Shown: piece by piece, positions 2,153 to 60,593 of the stretch
How the letters are laid out: each line of letters begins with the position of its first letter
Numbering within the stretch: position 1 is the stretch's first letter
Source: an uncultured Rhodospirillaceae bacterium
Lineage (GTDB): Bacteria > Pseudomonadota > Alphaproteobacteria > UBA7887
NCBI GenBank assembly: GCA_964408735.1
Contig: CAYPAX010000002.1
Span: 10,921-74,920 of the forward strand
Direction of reading: 5' to 3'
DNA length: 64,000 bases
Made by a program: the position numbers and the translations under genes
Notes under the pieces: generated by a model
What the model was told of the DNA's origin: nothing
Database searches by the model: none
What the model saw: the letters and a program-made list of their open reading frames with translations, nothing else

Positions 2153-3550
2153 TTGAAAGCGCTCAATCCCATTCTGCTCTCGGGCAAGGAAGTTCTGCCG
2201 CTTGTCGAGGGCGGAAAAGGTGTGGCCATCAGCAATGGCGCAAGCTCGGGTGCCTGGGCGGCCGCCGGCGGCGTCGGCACCTTTTCCGGCGTCAATGCGG
2301 ACAGCACCGACGAGGACGGCAATCTCATCCCGGTGGTATTTCATGGCCGTACCCGCAAGGCCCGCCACGAGGAACTGGTGGCCAACGGCATTCGCGGCGG
2401 CATCGAACAGGCCCACACAGCACACGAGATCTCCAACGGCCATGGCCGCCTGCATGTCAACGTCTTGTGGGAGATGGGTGGCTCGGAGCGGGTGCTGGAA
2501 GGTATCCTCGAGGGCACCAAGGGCTTAGTCCACGGCGTTACCTGTGGCGCCGGCATGCCCTACCGCATTGCCGAGATCGCCGCGCGGCACGGCATCTACT
2601 ACTATCCCATCATCTCCTCCGCGCGTGCCTTCCGGGCCTTGTGGAAGCGTGCCTATCACAAATACGGCGAAGGCCTCGGCGGCGTGGTCTACGAGGACCC
2701 CTGGCTGGCTGGCGGCCATAACGGGCTGTCGAACAGCGAAGATCCGCTCGCGCCCCAGGACCCCTATCCGCGGGTCCGCGCCTTGCGCGAGATCATGCGC
2801 GATTTCGGTCTCGACAGCACGCCCATCTTCATGGCCGGCGGGGTCTGGTATCTGCGTGATTGGGAAGACTGGATCGACAATCCGGAGCTCGGTCCGATCG
2901 CCTTCCAGTTCGGCTCCAGGCCGCTGCTGACCGTCGAGAGCCCCATCTCGCTGCAGTGGAAGGAGCACCTGCGCAGCCTCGAGCCGGGCTCCGTGACCCT
3001 CAATCACTTCAGTCCGACGGGCTTTTGGTCGTCAGCCGTCAGCAATGACTTCCTGCACGAATTGGCGAAGCGCTCCGAGCGCCAGGTCGCCTACACCACC
3101 GAGCCCCTCGGCGAGCACAATACCGAATTCGCCATCGGGCCGCGCAAGCGGGCGCTCTATCTGACCGAGCCCGATAGCCTCAATGCCAAGGCCTGGGTGG
3201 CCGAGGGCTTCAGCGAAGCCTTGCGCACCCCAGACAGCACCTTGATTTTCACCACGCCCGAGAAGGCTGCCGAGATTCGCACCGATCAGGTGGATTGCAT
3301 GGGTTGTCTCAGCGCCTGCAATTTCAGCAACTGGTCGCAGAACGGCCGCAACTCGACCGGCCGCAAAGCCGATCCCCGCAGCTTTTGCATCCAGAAGTCG
3401 CTGCAGTCGATCGCTCATGGCGGCGATGTCGAGAACGAACTGATGTTCGCCGGCCATGGCGCCTATCGTTTCGCGGTCGATCCCTTCTATTCCAACGGTT
3501 TCACGCCGACGGTCGGGGAACTGGTCGAGCGCATTGTCACGGGCGATTGA
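2153..3550 (+). CDS. Nitronate monooxygenase (NMO, 2-nitropropane dioxygenase-like) family flavin oxidoreductase
   Basis: 465 aa. Contains GGKGVAISNG near the N-terminus and TIM-barrel NMO-like motifs (GVTCGAGMPYRIAEIA, IFMAGGV). The start is probably TTG at 2153, preceded by AAGGAA. Confidence 0.65.
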   Translation: MKALNPILLSGKEVLPLVEGGKGVAISNGASSGAWAAAGGVGTFSGVNADSTDEDGNLIPVVFHGRTRKARHEELVANGIRGGIEQAHTAHEISNGHGRLHVNVLWEMGGSERVLEGILEGTKGLVHGVTCGAGMPYRIAEIAARHGIYYYPIISSARAFRALWKRAYHKYGEGLGGVVYEDPWLAGGHNGLSNSEDPLAPQDPYPRVRALREIMRDFGLDSTPIFMAGGVWYLRDWEDWIDNPELGPIAFQFGSRPLLTVESPISLQWKEHLRSLEPGSVTLNHFSPTGFWSSAVSNDFLHELAKRSERQVAYTTEPLGEHNTEFAIGPRKRALYLTEPDSLNAKAWVAEGFSEALRTPDSTLIFTTPEKAAEIRTDQVDCMGCLSACNFSNWSQNGRNSTGRKADPRSFCIQKSLQSIAHGGDVENELMFAGHGAYRFAVDPFYSNGFTPTVGELVERIVTGD

Positions 3551-3628
3551 CGGCGACGATTGAAGTTTTCCCCCTGGCGGCCTACTTTGAAAGAAAGCGG
3601 CCCCAAGCAACGAGCGCGGAAGGCACCG

Positions 3629-4069
3629 ATGATGGATATGGCTCACGCAGCGACCCTTTTGCGGTCGGTAGGATTGCGCCCGACGCGGCAGCGCCAGGCC
3701 TTGACGCAGCTGATGCTTGCCAGTGGGCACCGGCATTTCAATGCCGAGCAGCTGCATGACGATGCGCGCCGAGCTGGCGTCGGTGTGTCCCTTGCCACCA
3801 TCTACAACACGCTGCATCAGTTCACGGATGCCGGCCTGCTGCGCGAGTTGGTCGTCGACTCGGGGCGCTCCTACTTCGATACCAATACCAGCGAACATCA
3901 CCATTTCTATGACGAGGATGACGGCTCGCTGAGCGACATTCCGGCCGAAGCGGTGGTCGTCAATGCCATTCCCGCCGCCGGTCAAGGCCGGGAAATCAGT
4001 CGCGTCGATGTAGTGGTGCGGGTGCGCTCGTGCGGGCCTGCGGCAGCTGCCGATACCAGCAAAGATTAG
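3629..4069 (+). CDS. Fur family transcriptional regulator, PerR/Irr-like
   Basis: The Fur-family helix reads RPTRQRQALTQLMLASGHRHFNAEQLHDDARRAGVGVSLATIYNTLHQFTDAGLL, followed by an HHHFY metal-site region. The start was moved to the ATG at 3629 (GGAAGG RBS); the track ORF begins at 3560. The gene sits directly upstream of rubrerythrin. Confidence 0.75.
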   Translation: MMDMAHAATLLRSVGLRPTRQRQALTQLMLASGHRHFNAEQLHDDARRAGVGVSLATIYNTLHQFTDAGLLRELVVDSGRSYFDTNTSEHHHFYDEDDGSLSDIPAEAVVVNAIPAAGQGREISRVDVVVRVRSCGPAAAADTSKD

Positions 4070-52535: not shown

Positions 52536-55500
52536 GTGAGCGAGGACGGCGGACAAGAAGGCACCACCGAGCGCGTCGCGGCGATCCTGGCGGCGGATGC
52601 CGTGGGCTATTCGCGCCTCATGGCCGACGACGAGAAGGCGACGATCGCGGCGCTGGATCGCGCGCGGGCGGTGTTCACAGAACACATAGAGGCCAACCGT
52701 GGCCGGGTGGTGGACACGGCGGGCGACAGTGTGCTGGCGGTGTTCCAGACCACAGGCGGCGCTGTGCGGGCTTCGGTGGCAATCCAGGAAGGCCTGGCGG
52801 CGCTGGGCGAGGGTGTGCCCGAGCCGCGGCAAATGCTGTTCCGCATCGGCATCCACCTCGGCGATATTCATGAGAAGGCGGATGGCACCATCTACGGCGA
52901 TGGCGTCAATGTGGCGGCGCGGCTGGAGGCGCTGAGCCAGCCAGGGGGGATAACGGTTTCCGACTCAGTGCATGGCAGCATCCGCGACCGGCTTGACGTA
53001 AGCTTCGAGTTCCTGGGCGAGCACGAAGGCAAGAACCTCCGAGCGCCTGTGAAGGCGTATCGTGTGTTGCCAGAGGGCGTGGCTCTTGACACGTCAAAGA
53101 GTAAGCTAGGAATTCCGCGTAGTGGTGTCATCGCCGCGGCAGTGGCAGCCATCCTTATCGTGGTGGGAGCGGTTTGGTGGCAGACGCGGGCGCCCGAACT
53201 GCCGCCGATGGTGAGTGCCGCCGGCACGCCCACCGACGACCCCATTCTGGCCGCGCCCTCGGGTCCGGCGATTGCAGTGCTACCTTTTACTGATTTGTCC
53301 GAGGCAGCTGGACAAGCGTTCTTTGCCGACGGCTTGGCCGAGGACATCATTACCGGGCTGTCGCGTTTCAATCATTTGCGTGTCATCGCCCGCAACTCGA
53401 CCTTCCAGTACAAAGGCCAGGCGGTCGATGTGCGTGAGGTCGGCGAGGCGCTGGGTGTGCGCTACGTGCTCGAAGGCAGCGTCCGGCGAGCGGGTGACTC
53501 GTTACGTGTCTCGGCCCAGCTTCTCGATGCCCGCGACGGCACCCACCTGTGGGCGGAAACTTATGCCCGCGATCTCACTACCGCCGACATCTTCGGTGTC
53601 CAGGACAGCATCATGGAGCGTATCGTCGGGACCCTTGGTGATGAGCATGGTGTCATCAGTCGTGCCGGATTGGCAGAGACCGCAGCTCGCCACACCGACA
53701 ATCTCAGCGCCTACGAATGCGTGCTGCGCGCCTACGGCTATTACGACGTGATCACCCCGGCTGAGCATCTTGCGGTGCGCGCCTGCCTGGAGGAAGCGGT
53801 GGCTCTTGACCTGACCTACGCCGAGGCCTGGGGTTGGCTATCCCACATGTATCAGGACGAATACAAGTTCGGTTTCAATCCACGCCCCGACGTGGGCGAT
53901 CCGCTGGCGTCGGCCATCGCGGCTTCGCAGAATGCGATCAAGGCCGATCCGACCAGCCAGATTGGCTACGAATCCCTGGCCACGGGGCACTATTTCGCCG
54001 GCGACCTGGAGCAATTTCGTATCGCTGCCGAACGGGCGCTGTCGCTCAATCCGAACAACTCGCAAACGCTGGCCTATCTCGGCCAAATGATCGCATTTGC
54101 CGGTGATTGGGACAGAGGGATTGCCTTGATGGACAAGGCGGTGAGCCTCAATCCCAATCACCCCACCTGGTATCACGCCGCATACCTCATGCGACACTAT
54201 CGCGACGCCGACTACGCGGCGGCCTTGCTTTCGGCCAAGCGCTACAACTTGCCCATATTCTTCGCGCACCATTTGTTTCATGCGATCATCTACGCACAGC
54301 TGGGCCGGACCGAAGAGGCGCGGGCATCTATCGTCGCGCTTGAAGCGCTGTACCCGGGATATGCCGACGTAGCGCGCAGCAATCTGGAAAAATGGTGGAA
54401 AGACGAGGCGGTGGTCACTGCCATGCTCGACGGCCTGGAAAAAGCCGGCCTCTTCGATGAGCCCGAACCGCCATCCCGGCCCGTCATTGCCGTGCTGCCC
54501 TTCGACAATCTCTCTGGCGATCCCGAGCAGGACTATTTCGCCGACGGCATCACCGAGGACATCATCACGCGGCTGGCGCAGTTTCCGGACATTCTCGTGC
54601 TCGGGCGCAACACGACCTTCCAGTTCAAGGGCGAGGCGGTGGACGTGAAGGAGATCGGCGCCAGGTTGGAAGCCGACTACATCGTCGAAGGCAGCATCCG
54701 CCGCGCCGGCGAGACCGTGCGGGTCAACGCCCAGCTGCTCGATACCGAGAGCGGTGGCCATATCTGGGCCGAGACCTACGACCGCGCCCTTGACCCAGCC
54801 AACCTCTTCGCCATGCAGGACGAGATCACGGAAGCCGTCGCCAGCCGTATCGGCGACCGACATGGGGCGATTGGCCGTGCCGAGTTTCAGCGCTCCTCCC
54901 GACAAGCGCCAAAGAGTCTTTCGTCATACGAGTGCATTCTGAGATTTGTCGAGTTTCAACGGCACTTCAACGAGGAGACCCATGGTGTGGCGCGTGCCTG
55001 CCTGGAGGAAGTCGTCGAGGCAGAGCCCGATTACGGCGAGGCCTGGGCGCTGCTTGGTAATGCGTACCTCAATGAGATCAATTTTGGATTCAATGCCTCG
55101 GCGGAGTCTTCTTTGGCGCGGGCGATAGAGTTTATGGAGCGGGGTATTGCTATCGACCCGGGAAGCGGTCTGGCCCACGTTCACTTGGCCTGGGCGCTTC
55201 TCACCAACGACAACCCGGAGCGTGCCCTGCGCGAAGCCGAGGAAGCCCTGCGGCTCGATCCCAACAACGTCGAAGTCATCGCGACGGCTGGCATAGTTTT
55301 CGTGAACACGGGGGAGTATCAACGCACCGAGGAGATCATGGCCAAGGTCACGCTGCTGAACCCGAACTATCCCGCCTGGATGAACTGGAACATGGCAAAA
55401 GTTCACCTCGCGCGCGGCGACTATGCGGACGTCGTGGCGCGCCTTGAGATGACACAGATGGCGTGGTGGTATTGGACCAAAGCCTTCCTCGCCGCCGCCC

Positions 55501-55718
55501 ATTGCGCCAACGGCGATATCGAGCGTGGGCAGGAGGAGCTCGATGCCGCCCTCCAAGCTAACCCCGACCTCGCCGAGGCGTATTGGCCGGAGGTCTATTA
55601 CTTCAACAAGAGACCCGAGGTGCAGCCAATGATCGATGCCCTCTCCGCTGGCCTTGAGGTCTGTGGCTGGGACGTGCCGCCTGACCCGGGGCGACAGGCC
55701 GCGGCTGCGCCTAAATAA
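52536..55718 (+). CDS. Class III adenylate/guanylate cyclase with one TM segment and two tandem TolB-N-like plus TPR-like modules (1060 aa)
   Basis: GTG start and a CHD domain. A TM segment follows (VIAAAVAAILIVVGAVWW). The modules start at residue 244 (PAIAVLPFTDLSE...) and residue 649 (PVIAVLPFDNLSG...). Confidence 0.85.
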   Translation: MSEDGGQEGTTERVAAILAADAVGYSRLMADDEKATIAALDRARAVFTEHIEANRGRVVDTAGDSVLAVFQTTGGAVRASVAIQEGLAALGEGVPEPRQMLFRIGIHLGDIHEKADGTIYGDGVNVAARLEALSQPGGITVSDSVHGSIRDRLDVSFEFLGEHEGKNLRAPVKAYRVLPEGVALDTSKSKLGIPRSGVIAAAVAAILIVVGAVWWQTRAPELPPMVSAAGTPTDDPILAAPSGPAIAVLPFTDLSEAAGQAFFADGLAEDIITGLSRFNHLRVIARNSTFQYKGQAVDVREVGEALGVRYVLEGSVRRAGDSLRVSAQLLDARDGTHLWAETYARDLTTADIFGVQDSIMERIVGTLGDEHGVISRAGLAETAARHTDNLSAYECVLRAYGYYDVITPAEHLAVRACLEEAVALDLTYAEAWGWLSHMYQDEYKFGFNPRPDVGDPLASAIAASQNAIKADPTSQIGYESLATGHYFAGDLEQFRIAAERALSLNPNNSQTLAYLGQMIAFAGDWDRGIALMDKAVSLNPNHPTWYHAAYLMRHYRDADYAAALLSAKRYNLPIFFAHHLFHAIIYAQLGRTEEARASIVALEALYPGYADVARSNLEKWWKDEAVVTAMLDGLEKAGLFDEPEPPSRPVIAVLPFDNLSGDPEQDYFADGITEDIITRLAQFPDILVLGRNTTFQFKGEAVDVKEIGARLEADYIVEGSIRRAGETVRVNAQLLDTESGGHIWAETYDRALDPANLFAMQDEITEAVASRIGDRHGAIGRAEFQRSSRQAPKSLSSYECILRFVEFQRHFNEETHGVARACLEEVVEAEPDYGEAWALLGNAYLNEINFGFNASAESSLARAIEFMERGIAIDPGSGLAHVHLAWALLTNDNPERALREAEEALRLDPNNVEVIATAGIVFVNTGEYQRTEEIMAKVTLLNPNYPAWMNWNMAKVHLARGDYADVVARLEMTQMAWWYWTKAFLAAAHCANGDIERGQEELDAALQANPDLAEAYWPEVYYFNKRPEVQPMIDALSAGLEVCGWDVPPDPGRQAAAAPK
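53265..54479 (+). repeat. Dispersed direct repeat: module 1 of the 52536 cyclase is ~85-90% identical at nucleotide level to 7284-8495 (module 1 of the 6576 cyclase)
   Basis: Direct comparison by eye of 7381-7680 with 53381-53680. Protein identity is ~80% across roughly 400 aa, whereas the catalytic domains are only ~55-60% identical. Confidence 0.6.
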
Positions 55719-58276: not shown

Positions 58277-58504
58277 TTATGTGTCATCGATCTCCCAGTC
58301 GTCCATGATCACGCTCTGGGATGTGCGCCGGCCGCGACAGCGGATGGTCTTGCCGACCAGCGCCTCAAGGGCCTCGTCGCGGAACGGGTTGCCGCCCTCG
58401 CGTCGGAGCAGAAACTCACCCTCGGGCGTGGCCAGCATGACCGCGTCGCGCTCGCTCTTGGAGCCCGGCGCATAGAGTCGCTTGATGACTTTTCCCGTGA
58501 TCAC
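58277..58504 (-). CDS. Small hypothetical protein (75 aa, GTG start), third gene of the lectin operon
   Basis: High-GC codon usage consistent with coding. It starts 7 nt after the 505-aa gene's stop. No recognised domain. Confidence 0.35.
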   Translation of the reverse strand: MITGKVIKRLYAPGSKSERDAVMLATPEGEFLLRREGGNPFRDEALEALVGKTIRCRGRRTSQSVIMDDWEIDDT

Positions 58505-58511
58505 CGCATGA

Positions 58512-60029
58512 TCATTTCCGATAGAGAGTCCTCACGGAAACGATAACCCCATCGCGCTCCTCGACCAAGAGCACAGCCGCATCCTGGAAAAGATCGCCGG
58601 GCGAGCCGATGGTGCCATAGGTGCTGTGGAAGCGATGCTGTTCGGCAATCATGCTGTGGGCCAGCGCGAAACTCGGACCGCCTTCGACAATGGCGGTGTC
58701 GCGCGCCGTCACCTCCAGGCCGAGGGACGCGACCAGGCGCTCGATGCCTTCGGCGACCGCGCCCTCAGGGGCCGCATCTGCCTGGGCTATGGCAAAACCG
58801 GCCTCGCTCGCCAGCGCCTCGCCGCGCGCGGTCATGCGGATGCGGTCAGCACTCCGCCTGGCCGCCTCGAGCGCCTCCTCGTCCACCACATCGAGCGCGT
58901 GCGCCTCGACAGCTTTCGCCGCCTGGACCGGGTGGGCCGCCGGATCCGAGAGCAGAATGAACTGCGCGATGGTCTTCTGATCGACCGAGCCCAAAGGATT
59001 GTTCTGGCTGATGAAGTCCTGACGCGCGAGCAGCATGGCACTGCCCGCCGAGCGACCGCCGAGAAGCTGTTTGAGGAAATCCTGGGTGATCAGGTCAGCG
59101 GCGCCCTGCCCGCTTGCGGGCCCATAGGCGATGTTGGTGCTGCCGCAAAACGCCGCGACGCCGCCCGACGTCATGGCATTGCAGATCGGCATCGTGCCTG
59201 ATCCGGAGGCGTAGAGTTCGGCGCCATAGCAGCACTCCGCGGTGGCGATCGTGCCGGCAGAGAGGTTGCCCTGGATTTGCGCGGACTCGACAGCCTTCGG
59301 ATAGCTGCTGCCCTTCTGGCCATACCAATTCGGATCCGCGTCGCTGCCGTGGCAGTTGACGAACCAGGACCGTGCGGCGAGTTGCTGGCTGGTCCAATTG
59401 GGGCCGTCGGGCGGTGACAGCTGTAGCGTGGTCGCACTGCCGAAGATTTTGCTGACGCTGGTCGTGGTCGAGCCCTGCCAGACCTCGGCGCTGACCGCGA
59501 GATAGGTCGTGTACTCGTTCTGGGGCAGGGCGGTCAGCGACGCGGAGGTGTTGATCGCGGCAACGAGCTGGGCGGTGTCGTTGCTGCCGGTTATGCCCGC
59601 AAGACGCCCGACAACCCGCGTGGGCGCCAGAAAGTCCGTAATCGTCGTGCTGTAAGCGGCGGCACAGGCATAGGGCAGGTCGGAGGGAACGTTGGCGTCC
59701 GGATCGCCCGATACCGGGTTGGTGAGGGTCTGGTGCGGCACCACGTCCGGCCCGCCGAGGATCATCAGATAGTCCGGTGTCAGTGCGGTGTAGACGCCGT
59801 CCACCGCGTCCTTGTTCTGCTGGTCGTCGGCAATGTTGGTGACCACGGGGGCGCCGAGCTTGCCCATTTGCTTGGCGTTGTCCATGAACACGATCTGGGT
59901 CGTGATGCCGCGCCTTTGGTCGGCCCCGATCAGGGTATTGAGCGCCGCCGAGATCTTCGAGACGTTGGTCCCGTACAGCTTCGTGAGCCCTTTTTGGTTG
60001 GTGACGATAACCTTGCTTGTCGTAGCCAT
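58512..60029 (-). CDS. 505-aa protein with a caspase/gingipain-like (clan CD) His-Gly...Cys signature; function unknown
   Basis: SWFVNCHGSD and GTIATAECCYGA each follow a hydrophobic strand, with 39 residues between the His and the Cys. No signal peptide. It starts 9 nt after the lectin stop. Confidence 0.55.
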   Translation of the reverse strand: MATTSKVIVTNQKGLTKLYGTNVSKISAALNTLIGADQRRGITTQIVFMDNAKQMGKLGAPVVTNIADDQQNKDAVDGVYTALTPDYLMILGGPDVVPHQTLTNPVSGDPDANVPSDLPYACAAAYSTTITDFLAPTRVVGRLAGITGSNDTAQLVAAINTSASLTALPQNEYTTYLAVSAEVWQGSTTTSVSKIFGSATTLQLSPPDGPNWTSQQLAARSWFVNCHGSDADPNWYGQKGSSYPKAVESAQIQGNLSAGTIATAECCYGAELYASGSGTMPICNAMTSGGVAAFCGSTNIAYGPASGQGAADLITQDFLKQLLGGRSAGSAMLLARQDFISQNNPLGSVDQKTIAQFILLSDPAAHPVQAAKAVEAHALDVVDEEALEAARRSADRIRMTARGEALASEAGFAIAQADAAPEGAVAEGIERLVASLGLEVTARDTAIVEGGPSFALAHSMIAEQHRFHSTYGTIGSPGDLFQDAAVLLVEERDGVIVSVRTLYRK

Positions 60030-60038
60030 GTCACGCCC

Positions 60039-60416
60039 TCACCCCTTGTGTTTCCAACAGACCAGCGAGACATAGAGATCGTTGTAGTCGTTATCGTCGC
60101 TGTCCTCGACGCTCAGATTGAAGCCGTGGCCGATGACCACGCCGTCCTCACGCGTGATGTTGTAGGAATCGATCGAGGATTTGATGCTCGTCGATTCCGG
60201 GATGTTGACCGTGATCGCCAGCCCGGTCCCCGCGATGTAGTCGCTGCCGACCGACAGCGGCGGCTCGATGTTGGTCGACTTCCGGCTGGTACTGACATAG
60301 GTCTTGCTCGAATCCTTGAGCGTGACGCCGATGGTGTAGCCAGCTTGTGTGAACATGGTCCAGGCCATGAACAGGCCCTGGTCGAAATTCGGCACACTGT
60401 AAGTTTTGGTGGCCAT
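60039..60416 (-). CDS. PA-IIL/LecB-family calcium-dependent fucose/mannose-binding lectin (125 aa)
   Basis: The C-terminal end reads VEDSDDNDYNDLYVSLVCWKHKG-COOH. It matches the LecB calcium/sugar-binding motif (LecB C-terminus: VGSEDGTDNDYNDAVVVINWPLG), including the C-terminal Gly. Strong GGGAGGGAG RBS. Confidence 0.65.
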   Translation of the reverse strand: MATKTYSVPNFDQGLFMAWTMFTQAGYTIGVTLKDSSKTYVSTSRKSTNIEPPLSVGSDYIAGTGLAITVNIPESTSIKSSIDSYNITREDGVVIGHGFNLSVEDSDDNDYNDLYVSLVCWKHKG

Positions 60417-60593
60417 TGTCTCCCTCCCTCAAATTGCATTTCTTTAAACATTACCATTAAAAATAGATAAAATAAATACACTGCCGCTATTCCGAGTAAA
60501 CAGATCCTGCTTGCGACATCAGGCGTGCCGATAATTGCCGGATCTTTCGGGCGCCGCGGGCTGTCAAAACGAGCCCGCCTTATCGCGCAAGGC
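60417..60593 (-). promoter_or_regulatory. AT-rich promoter region upstream of the lectin operon
   Basis: The stretch reads aaattgcatttctttaaacattaccattaaaaatagataaaataaatacactg. This is the most AT-rich intergenic segment in the window. Confidence 0.3.

Follow-up and report, generated by a model that had tools for sequence, protein, structure and literature searches.

The analyzed window, a 64,000-nucleotide stretch of DNA from an uncultured Rhodospirillaceae bacterium (GenBank assembly GCA_964408735.1, contig CAYPAX010000002.1, positions 10,921 to 74,920), carries a gene whose 125-residue product is very probably a small, all-beta, signal-peptide-less two-calcium lectin of the LecB/PA-IIL family, with a binding site built as in LecB and thrombocorticin. 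The probability of this reading is put at about 0.82. An initial annotation had named the protein a PA-IIL (LecB)-family lectin, and profile homology, the modeled fold and the identity of the calcium ligands all support that name. The protein belongs to a divergent, experimentally uncharacterized subfamily that is about equally distant from LecB and thrombocorticin. It extends the known PA-IIL family, is not a new kind of protein, and is already captured by the newest Pfam.

Sequence homology to the PA-IIL family

Direct comparison with LecB, using a LecB sequence that agreed with PDB 1GZT, yields one BLASTP segment of 18 residues (10/18 identical, 56%; E 3e-4). The resemblance of the C-terminal end to the calcium- and sugar-binding loop of LecB, on which the initial annotation had remarked, is real, and at the single-sequence level it is limited to this segment.

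Profiles extend the relationship to nearly the whole chain. The profile of a shallow alignment of 11 close homologues stays below significance against the PDB, with BC2L-A as its top lectin match at E 0.16 and LecB at E 3; aligned by hhalign with a 20-sequence alignment of the LecB family, it pairs 17 loop columns and no more. An exhaustive hidden Markov model search covering 1.84 billion representatives delineated a family of 229 clusters at E<=1e-3, of which 129 also pass E<=1e-10; most are proteins of 125-133 residues matched end to end. The profile of a 56-sequence alignment drawn from this search finds LecB of strain PA7 (E 2.2e-5) and thrombocorticin (E 1.9e-4) over residues 9-121, and hhalign places the alignment against the LecB family with a probability of 94.9% and an E value of 4.7e-8 across 94 aligned columns. 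At the profile level, the protein can therefore be assigned as a significant homologue of the PA-IIL family (PF07472). Pfam itself appears to have moved in this direction: PF07472.16 matches one of the 11 close homologues (E 0.0015), the precomputed matches of PF07472.18 list PA-IIL for the exact protein without a "weak" or "faint" mark, and the model seems to have been broadened between the two versions.

Much of the likeness could, in principle, come down to a shared short motif, D-x-D-[YF]-N-D, which also occurs in DUF4114; the protein would then be a DUF4114 member or an unrelated beta-sandwich. Pfam-A gives just a weak DUF4114 match (PF13448; residues 80-117, E 0.18) that scores 13.2 bits and does not reach the gathering threshold of 27. 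Four of the 11 close homologues also match DUF4114 weakly, the best of them at E 0.013, and the 17-column span of the shallow alignment would suit a motif-sized likeness. Set beside the 94-column profile alignment and the predicted fold described below, this explanation is very improbable.

Predicted fold

AlphaFold2, run on the 11-sequence alignment, gives a model with a mean predicted local distance difference test (pLDDT) score of 94.2, whose nine beta-strands form an antiparallel sandwich of the LecB type. In a Foldseek comparison with the PDB, all 26 matches at E<=1e-3 are PA-IIL-family lectins, with template modeling (TM) scores of 0.57-0.72, and the next match follows at E 2e-2. These lectins include LecB, thrombocorticin, BC2L-A, CV-IIL, RS-IIL and BC2L-C (C-terminal domain). 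The PA-IIL beta-sandwich, whose absence had been named beforehand as a refuting point, is present in the model, and at this level the predicted fold of the protein is the PA-IIL sandwich.

The predicted calcium and sugar site

In LecB, the two Ca2+ ions are bound through the carboxylate groups of Glu95, Asp99, Asp101 and Asp104, the Asn103 side chain, the Asn21 main-chain oxygen and the C-terminal carboxylate contributed by Gly114 of the adjacent monomer (PMC8752737). Asp96 hydrogen-bonds fucose O2 and is not a calcium ligand, as established by neutron and X-ray data (PMC8752737). The description of LecB in the initial annotation, in which the carboxylate of the terminal glycine completes the calcium site of the neighbor, agrees with this source.

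The five side-chain ligands are identical in the window lectin and stand in register: E104, D108, D110, N112 and D113 correspond to Glu95, Asp99, Asp101, Asn103 and Asp104, while D105 aligns with the sugar-contacting Asp96. Conservation was counted over the 150 best representatives, unselected for the motif and with denominators that vary by position, and reaches 95% for E104, 94% for D105 (130 of 138 representatives), 92% for D108, 97% for D110, 93% for N112 and 99% for D113. The acidic cluster, the NDYND run and the terminal glycine that had been read from the sequence are all found, the loop residues in register with LecB. The ligand positions beyond NDYND, where a loss had been proposed as grounds for refutation, are likewise kept (E104 in 95% and D108 in 92% of the representatives).

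The turn that supplies the main-chain ligand in LecB probably has its counterpart at Gln24, which aligns with Asn21 of LecB in both hhalign and HMMER alignments and with Gln25 of thrombocorticin; the model places a hairpin turn at this residue. Gln24 is present in 114 of 132 representatives (86%) and is the sole strongly conserved residue of the N-terminal third. Replacement of Asn21 by Gln24 is compatible with calcium coordination, since the LecB ligand at this point is a main-chain atom. In thrombocorticin, the Q25K substitution abolishes fucose binding by displacing the C-terminus of the partner chain, the terminal Gly131 carboxylate binds Ca-1, and one additional Gly at the C-terminus diminishes binding (PMC9700728).

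The C-terminal tail, LYVSLVCWKHKG, is also tightly constrained. Counted from the last Asp of the loop, it comprises exactly 12 residues in 94 of the 111 motif-bearing representatives, and 75 of the 111 end in Gly; W121 within it is 88% conserved. A fixed length would be expected if the terminal carboxylate is functional, because one extra residue diminishes thrombocorticin binding.

Complete ligand conservation and the solved structures of relatives allow calcium binding, dimerization, sugar binding and, more tentatively, a type of sugar to be inferred for the window lectin. In the proposed mechanism, the loop E104-D105-x-x-D108-x-D110-Y-N112-D113 and the Gln24 main chain would jointly hold two adjacent Ca2+ ions. 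The lectin would form at least a dimer, in which the Gly125 carboxylate of one chain would complete the calcium/sugar site of the other. A monosaccharide with a fucose/mannose-type trio of hydroxyls would bind both calcium ions directly and would hydrogen-bond D105, D108 and the C-terminus of the partner chain. Provided that the protein is a lectin, the odds of a fucose or mannose preference are roughly even.

Outside the known calcium/sugar site, W19, D35 and Y40 are 83-88% conserved in the subfamily. D35 lies in a hairpin at the end of the sandwich opposite the binding loop, and oligomer contacts are a possible role for the three residues.

Several observations weigh against the lectin reading. 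A single-sequence hmmscan with Pfam-A (PF07472.16) finds no PA-IIL match at E<=1, and a phmmer search of the PDB returns nothing significant, its GFP and nsp8 matches being at chance level. Identity to LecB beyond the 17-18-residue loop amounts to about 16-22% and is visible solely through profiles or the model; the initial annotation had called the N-terminal ~100 residues divergent. The evidence for the fold is an AlphaFold2 model, and the PDB entries used to train AlphaFold2 include LecB. The tail of 12 residues, compared with 10 in LecB and 11 in thrombocorticin, has two extra residues relative to LecB. The segment A25-G26-Y27, which corresponds to the LecB specificity loop S22-S23-G24, differs from its counterparts in LecB, RS-IIL and CV-IIL and is variable across the family, so that no particular sugar can be named. 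Finally, neither this protein nor the peptidase encoded beside it has an N-terminal signal peptide (both N-termini are core strands in the models), so the role of an extracellular adhesin is not evident.

The predicted lectin gene

The open reading frame (ORF) at 60039-60416 was confirmed exactly as first described, on the minus strand with 125 codons plus TGA and EDSDDNDYNDLYVSLVCWKHKG as its last 22 residues. A strong Shine-Dalgarno sequence, GAGGGAGGGAGACA, lies directly 5' of the ATG (60417-60430). A search of all six reading frames of the 64-kb window for the strict pattern ED..D.D[YF]ND gives a single occurrence, within this ORF, against a roughly estimated chance expectation of ~2e-4 per window. 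A word-indexed search identified ten close homologues of about 125 residues and 46-70% identity, all ending in KG-stop, and their full-length conservation indicates that the gene is genuine and conserved. The exact 125-residue protein, flanked by the same neighbors, is also encoded on at least 24 metagenome contigs from JGI and ENA samples. The ORF is a real, conserved gene.

Base composition raises the question of whether the ORF might be what is left of a lectin gene that was acquired horizontally and has since decayed and lost its function. The overall GC content is 0.57 in the gene versus 0.66 in the window, and the region upstream is AT-rich, with GC dropping to 0.54 between 60417 and 60593. 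However, GC at third codon positions (GC3) is 0.83, like the 0.82-0.87 of neighboring genes, the frame is intact, the ribosome-binding site is strong, the identical protein recurs on the metagenome contigs mentioned above, and the functional residues are all intact within a family conserved over its full length. A remnant is therefore extremely unlikely, the least credible of the alternatives considered. The low overall GC reflects amino-acid composition and not foreign origin, because GC3 equals that of the neighbors; recent horizontal transfer, suggested by the low gene GC, was dismissed on the same ground.

Farther upstream, a terminator-like hairpin (60574-60591, minus strand) closes the GST gene. 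On the minus strand, the region 5' of the lectin gene gave no match to a sigma-70-like promoter, and an Rfam scan of the whole window returned nothing.

A three-gene unit with a gingipain-like peptidase

The lectin gene is followed by genes for a 505-residue gingipain-like cysteine peptidase and a conserved 75-residue protein (Table 1). The gaps of 9 and 7 nucleotides make this a compact unit that is probably co-transcribed. A Pfam match, a His/Cys dyad and the modeled fold jointly mark the 505-residue protein as a putative C25/clan CD peptidase. It scores 33.6 bits against PF01364 (cut-off 23), and all 42 homologues compared keep H227, G228 and C267, which lie in the motifs NCHG and ECCYG. 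Its AlphaFold2 model has a pLDDT of 92.9; in Foldseek the best matches of this model are gingipain K (E 1.6e-13) and, next, RgpB (E 1.8e-12), while SAVED-CHAT, Craspase, separase and caspases rank below them.

The 75-residue protein has no match in Pfam, NCBIfam, PADLOC or the PDB, and the NCBIfam and PADLOC scans were uninformative for all three proteins. No protein of the cassette qualifies in the PADLOC-DB defense models; the sole match is a weak one to Csm6 over peptidase residues 11-67 (E 0.0036). A CARF/Csm6-like sensor domain was ruled out, as these residues make up the alpha/beta subdomain at the N-terminus of the gingipain-like fold.

Elsewhere in the window, a 1060-residue ORF (52536-55718, plus strand) encodes a guanylate/adenylate cyclase domain and tetratricopeptide repeats, according to the called genes of identical contigs; it is unrelated to the lectin.

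Table 1. Features of the window, cassette-bearing loci and lectin-domain fusion proteins
Feature	Position	Strand	Remarks
Lectin gene, 125-residue PA-IIL/LecB-fold two-calcium lectin homologue (predicted)	60039..60416	-	ATG start; 125 codons + TGA; coordinates include stop
Putative calcium/sugar loop, residues 104-113 (EDSDDNDYND), equivalent to LecB E95-D104	60078..60107	-	Aligned to LecB EDGTDNDYND
12-residue C-terminal tail LYVSLVCWKHKG, ending in Gly125	60042..60077	-	Tail-length counts in representatives
Gln24 codon (LecB Asn21, thrombocorticin Gln25), turn between strands 2 and 3	60345..60347	-	Profile alignments
W19, D35, Y40 codons	60360-60362, 60312-60314, 60297-60299	-	Conservation
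Intergenic region 5' of lectin gene	60417..60593	-	Shine-Dalgarno GAGGGAGGGAGACA, AT-rich stretch, terminator-like hairpin
Putative gingipain-like (clan CD, Peptidase_C25) cysteine peptidase, 505 residues	58512..60029	-	Starts 9 nt after lectin stop
Putative catalytic His227 and Cys267 of the peptidase	59349-59351, 59229-59231	-	Invariant in homologues
Conserved 75-residue protein	58277..58504	-	Starts 7 nt after peptidase stop
Window locus			Complete lectin/C25-like/~75-residue cassette
Locus L007			Complete cassette, adjoining a Por_Secre_tail gene
Locus L008			Complete cassette, Rhodospirillaceae metagenome-assembled genome
Locus L032			Complete cassette between S30AE and ParE genes
Locus L036			Lectin and C25-like gene; contig ends inside the C25-like gene, ~75-residue gene beyond view
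Lectin-domain fusion proteins	P0072, P0140, P0114, P0129, P0156, P0174, P0150, P0195; L025 2901-5366		

Recurrence of the gene order

The order lectin followed by C25-like gene recurs in five of seven assessable close-clade loci, amid unrelated flanks (Table 1), and wherever a complete locus was examined (L001-L008, L028-L033), the ~75-residue gene comes next after the C25-like gene. Gene order only is the basis for the view that the lectin most likely works with the gingipain-like peptidase. On the same footing, the lectin may direct or tether the adjacent peptidase to glycosylated material.

Other loci speak against this link. Two close homologues, in L034 and L010, have no peptidase beside them: in L010 the DNA downstream is non-coding, and in L034, whose lectin is 67% identical to that of the window, two lectin paralogues flank a 245-residue TenA-like gene (852-1589). 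The C25-like and ~75-residue pair is also far commoner than the lectin, with more than 2000 matches in Planctomycetes, Acidobacteriota, Acidimicrobiales, Verrucomicrobia and others, and it was lectin-free in four sampled contexts (L028-L031). More distant lectin homologues have no C25-like or ~75-residue neighbors. Since the pair is widespread without the lectin, the peptidase pair is the core module and the lectin a recurrent add-on. Among the cassette loci, lectins share 58-73% identity versus 47-51% for the peptidases, and the two sets of pairwise identities correlate modestly (Spearman 0.68; 10 non-independent pairs). In the peptidase tree, the lectin-linked sequences do not stand apart from the unlinked ones, so no co-inheritance is claimed beyond the conserved gene order.

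The C25-like pair lies in variable contexts, with genes for a HigB toxin, a ParE toxin (L032) or a TIR-domain protein (L031) nearby. The lectin has a second recurrent partner: a protein of ~245-280 residues with a weak TENA/THI-4/PQQC match is encoded directly upstream of lectin homologues in L034, L012 (4245-4994), L013, L014, L018 and L020, and is 42-44% identical between L034 and the gut Bacteroidota loci.

The same neighborhood invites a different account of the protein, in which it has the PA-IIL fold and calcium loop and is not a lectin but an accessory subunit of the peptidase (a regulator, sensor or substrate adaptor, for instance) that would bind calcium or a small molecule in the cytoplasm. 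The missing signal peptide and the core-strand N-terminus suit this account, as does the tight coupling to the C25-like and 75-residue genes, whose products both lack signal peptides and whose order is kept in five neighborhoods. The location of the peptidase pair in variable regions beside HigB, ParE and TIR genes in some genomes, and the fusion of family domains to cytidine or adenosine deaminases, point the same way. However, D105, whose LecB equivalent contacts sugar and not calcium, is 94% conserved, the terminal Gly and its distance from the loop are kept in most representatives, and all characterized family members are Ca-dependent lectins. LecB itself has no signal peptide, yet it acts outside the cell. 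Dockerin fusions of other members indicate an extracellular carbohydrate context, and most family members have no peptidase neighbor. Overall, an accessory subunit is distinctly unlikely, and the two-calcium lectin remains the preferred reading.

A combined arrangement is also conceivable, though rather doubtful: the lectin, the clan CD peptidase and the 75-residue protein might form one cytoplasmic or non-classically exported system in which LecB-type glycan recognition would target or trigger proteolysis. If true, this could amount to a protease guided by glycans or to a sensor-effector module belonging to the accessory genome. To our knowledge, no lectin of the PA-IIL family has been described as coupled to a protease in this way.

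Distribution and domain contexts of the lectin family

A taxon scan of one genome per species shows that the family extends over more than one lineage. The closest named relative, with 58% identity, comes from a Rhodospirillaceae metagenome-assembled genome. Further relatives occur in Prevotella, Segatella copri, Bacteroides congonensis and Phocaeicola; in Ruminiclostridium, Anaeromicropila populeti (strain 743A) and other Clostridia; in Treponema and further Spirochaetaceae; and in Myxococcales and Saprospiraceae. A variant that shares 31% identity with the window lectin is itself identical in 17 independent metagenome contigs (L038-L054, ~3501-3881), several of them labeled human gut, and a gut bacterium carrying this subfamily appears to be common. 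The metagenome scan returned mostly this one human-gut variant and no further cassette loci. Searches of plasmid, phage and IMG/VR viral-contig collections found no relatives, and a phage- or plasmid-borne lectin was dismissed on this basis.

The fusion partners of the lectin domain in other organisms are dockerin, GLUG repeats, a cytidine/MafB19-like deaminase, an adenosine deaminase, a metallo-beta-lactamase-fold domain, DUF6765 and an alkyl sulfatase (Table 1). Among the fused enzymes whose C-terminus was seen, the terminal Gly is often missing. Lectin homologues of Bacteroides and Segatella adjoin genes for a BspA-type adhesin with leucine-rich repeats and Big_2 domains and for Mfa-like fimbrillin (L018 2289-4205; L023 4036-4992), which suggests a surface-adhesion context in these genera. 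The dockerin, GLUG and alkyl sulfatase fusions, together with the fimbrillin and BspA neighbors, fit the role of a carbohydrate-binding module.

Implications

Lectins of the LecB type serve as drug targets and as models of exceptionally tight sugar binding bridged by calcium. Apart from one sponge protein, those characterized derive from a small group of beta- and gamma-proteobacterial pathogens. The present family indicates that an intact two-calcium site persists in a far more divergent subfamily with a broad taxonomic spread that takes in marine bacteria, human-gut Bacteroidota and Clostridia. Because this subfamily has conserved features of its own, namely the T-Q-A turn, the 12-residue tail and the residues W19, D35 and Y40, it offers new scaffolds and possibly new specificities. 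The recurrent order of lectin, peptidase and 75-residue genes provides a testable hypothesis for what a signal-peptide-less lectin does in a free-living bacterium. The cassette also points to a very large, uncharacterized family of C25-like peptidases (>2000 database matches).

Comparison with known systems

In its modeled structure, the window lectin resembles LecB/PA-IIL (1GZT, 4UT5; PF07472), with ~20% identity in structural alignments, yet displays several distinctions. LecB has Asn21, an S-S-G specificity loop and a 10-residue tail ending in W-P-L-G, whereas the window lectin has Gln24, A-G-Y and a 12-residue tail ending in W-K-H-K-G. Its chain is about 10 residues longer, and, unlike LecB, it is encoded beside a gingipain-like peptidase. 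BC2L-A and BC2L-C's C-terminal domain (Burkholderia cenocepacia), RS-IIL (Ralstonia) and CV-IIL (Chromobacterium) share its predicted fold and calcium loop (Foldseek E 6e-6 to 9e-5). These four are close relatives of LecB (E 1e-16 to 1e-48) with a 10-residue W-P-x-G tail, and the window lectin falls outside their cluster.

Thrombocorticin from the sponge Corticium (7F91, 7F9F) is about as distant, at ~17-20% identity. Its loop carries a four-residue insertion (N107-D108-GGCIVG-D115-R-D117-F-N119-D120), and Asn replaces the first Glu; the loop of the window lectin, in contrast, is uninterrupted and of the LecB type. In the profile alignment, Gln24 of the window lectin pairs with Gln25 of thrombocorticin.

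The gingipains RgpB and Kgp of Porphyromonas gingivalis share a clan CD domain and a His-Gly ... Cys dyad with the 505-residue protein, at ~10% identity in structural alignment. Unlike gingipains, this protein has no signal peptide, pro-domain, Ig-like domain or type IX secretion system C-terminal domain, and it has its own alpha/beta C-terminal domain (384-505) and the ~75-residue partner. Gingipains act together with hemagglutinin/adhesin domains, which offers a loose analogy to the pairing of a lectin with a protease.
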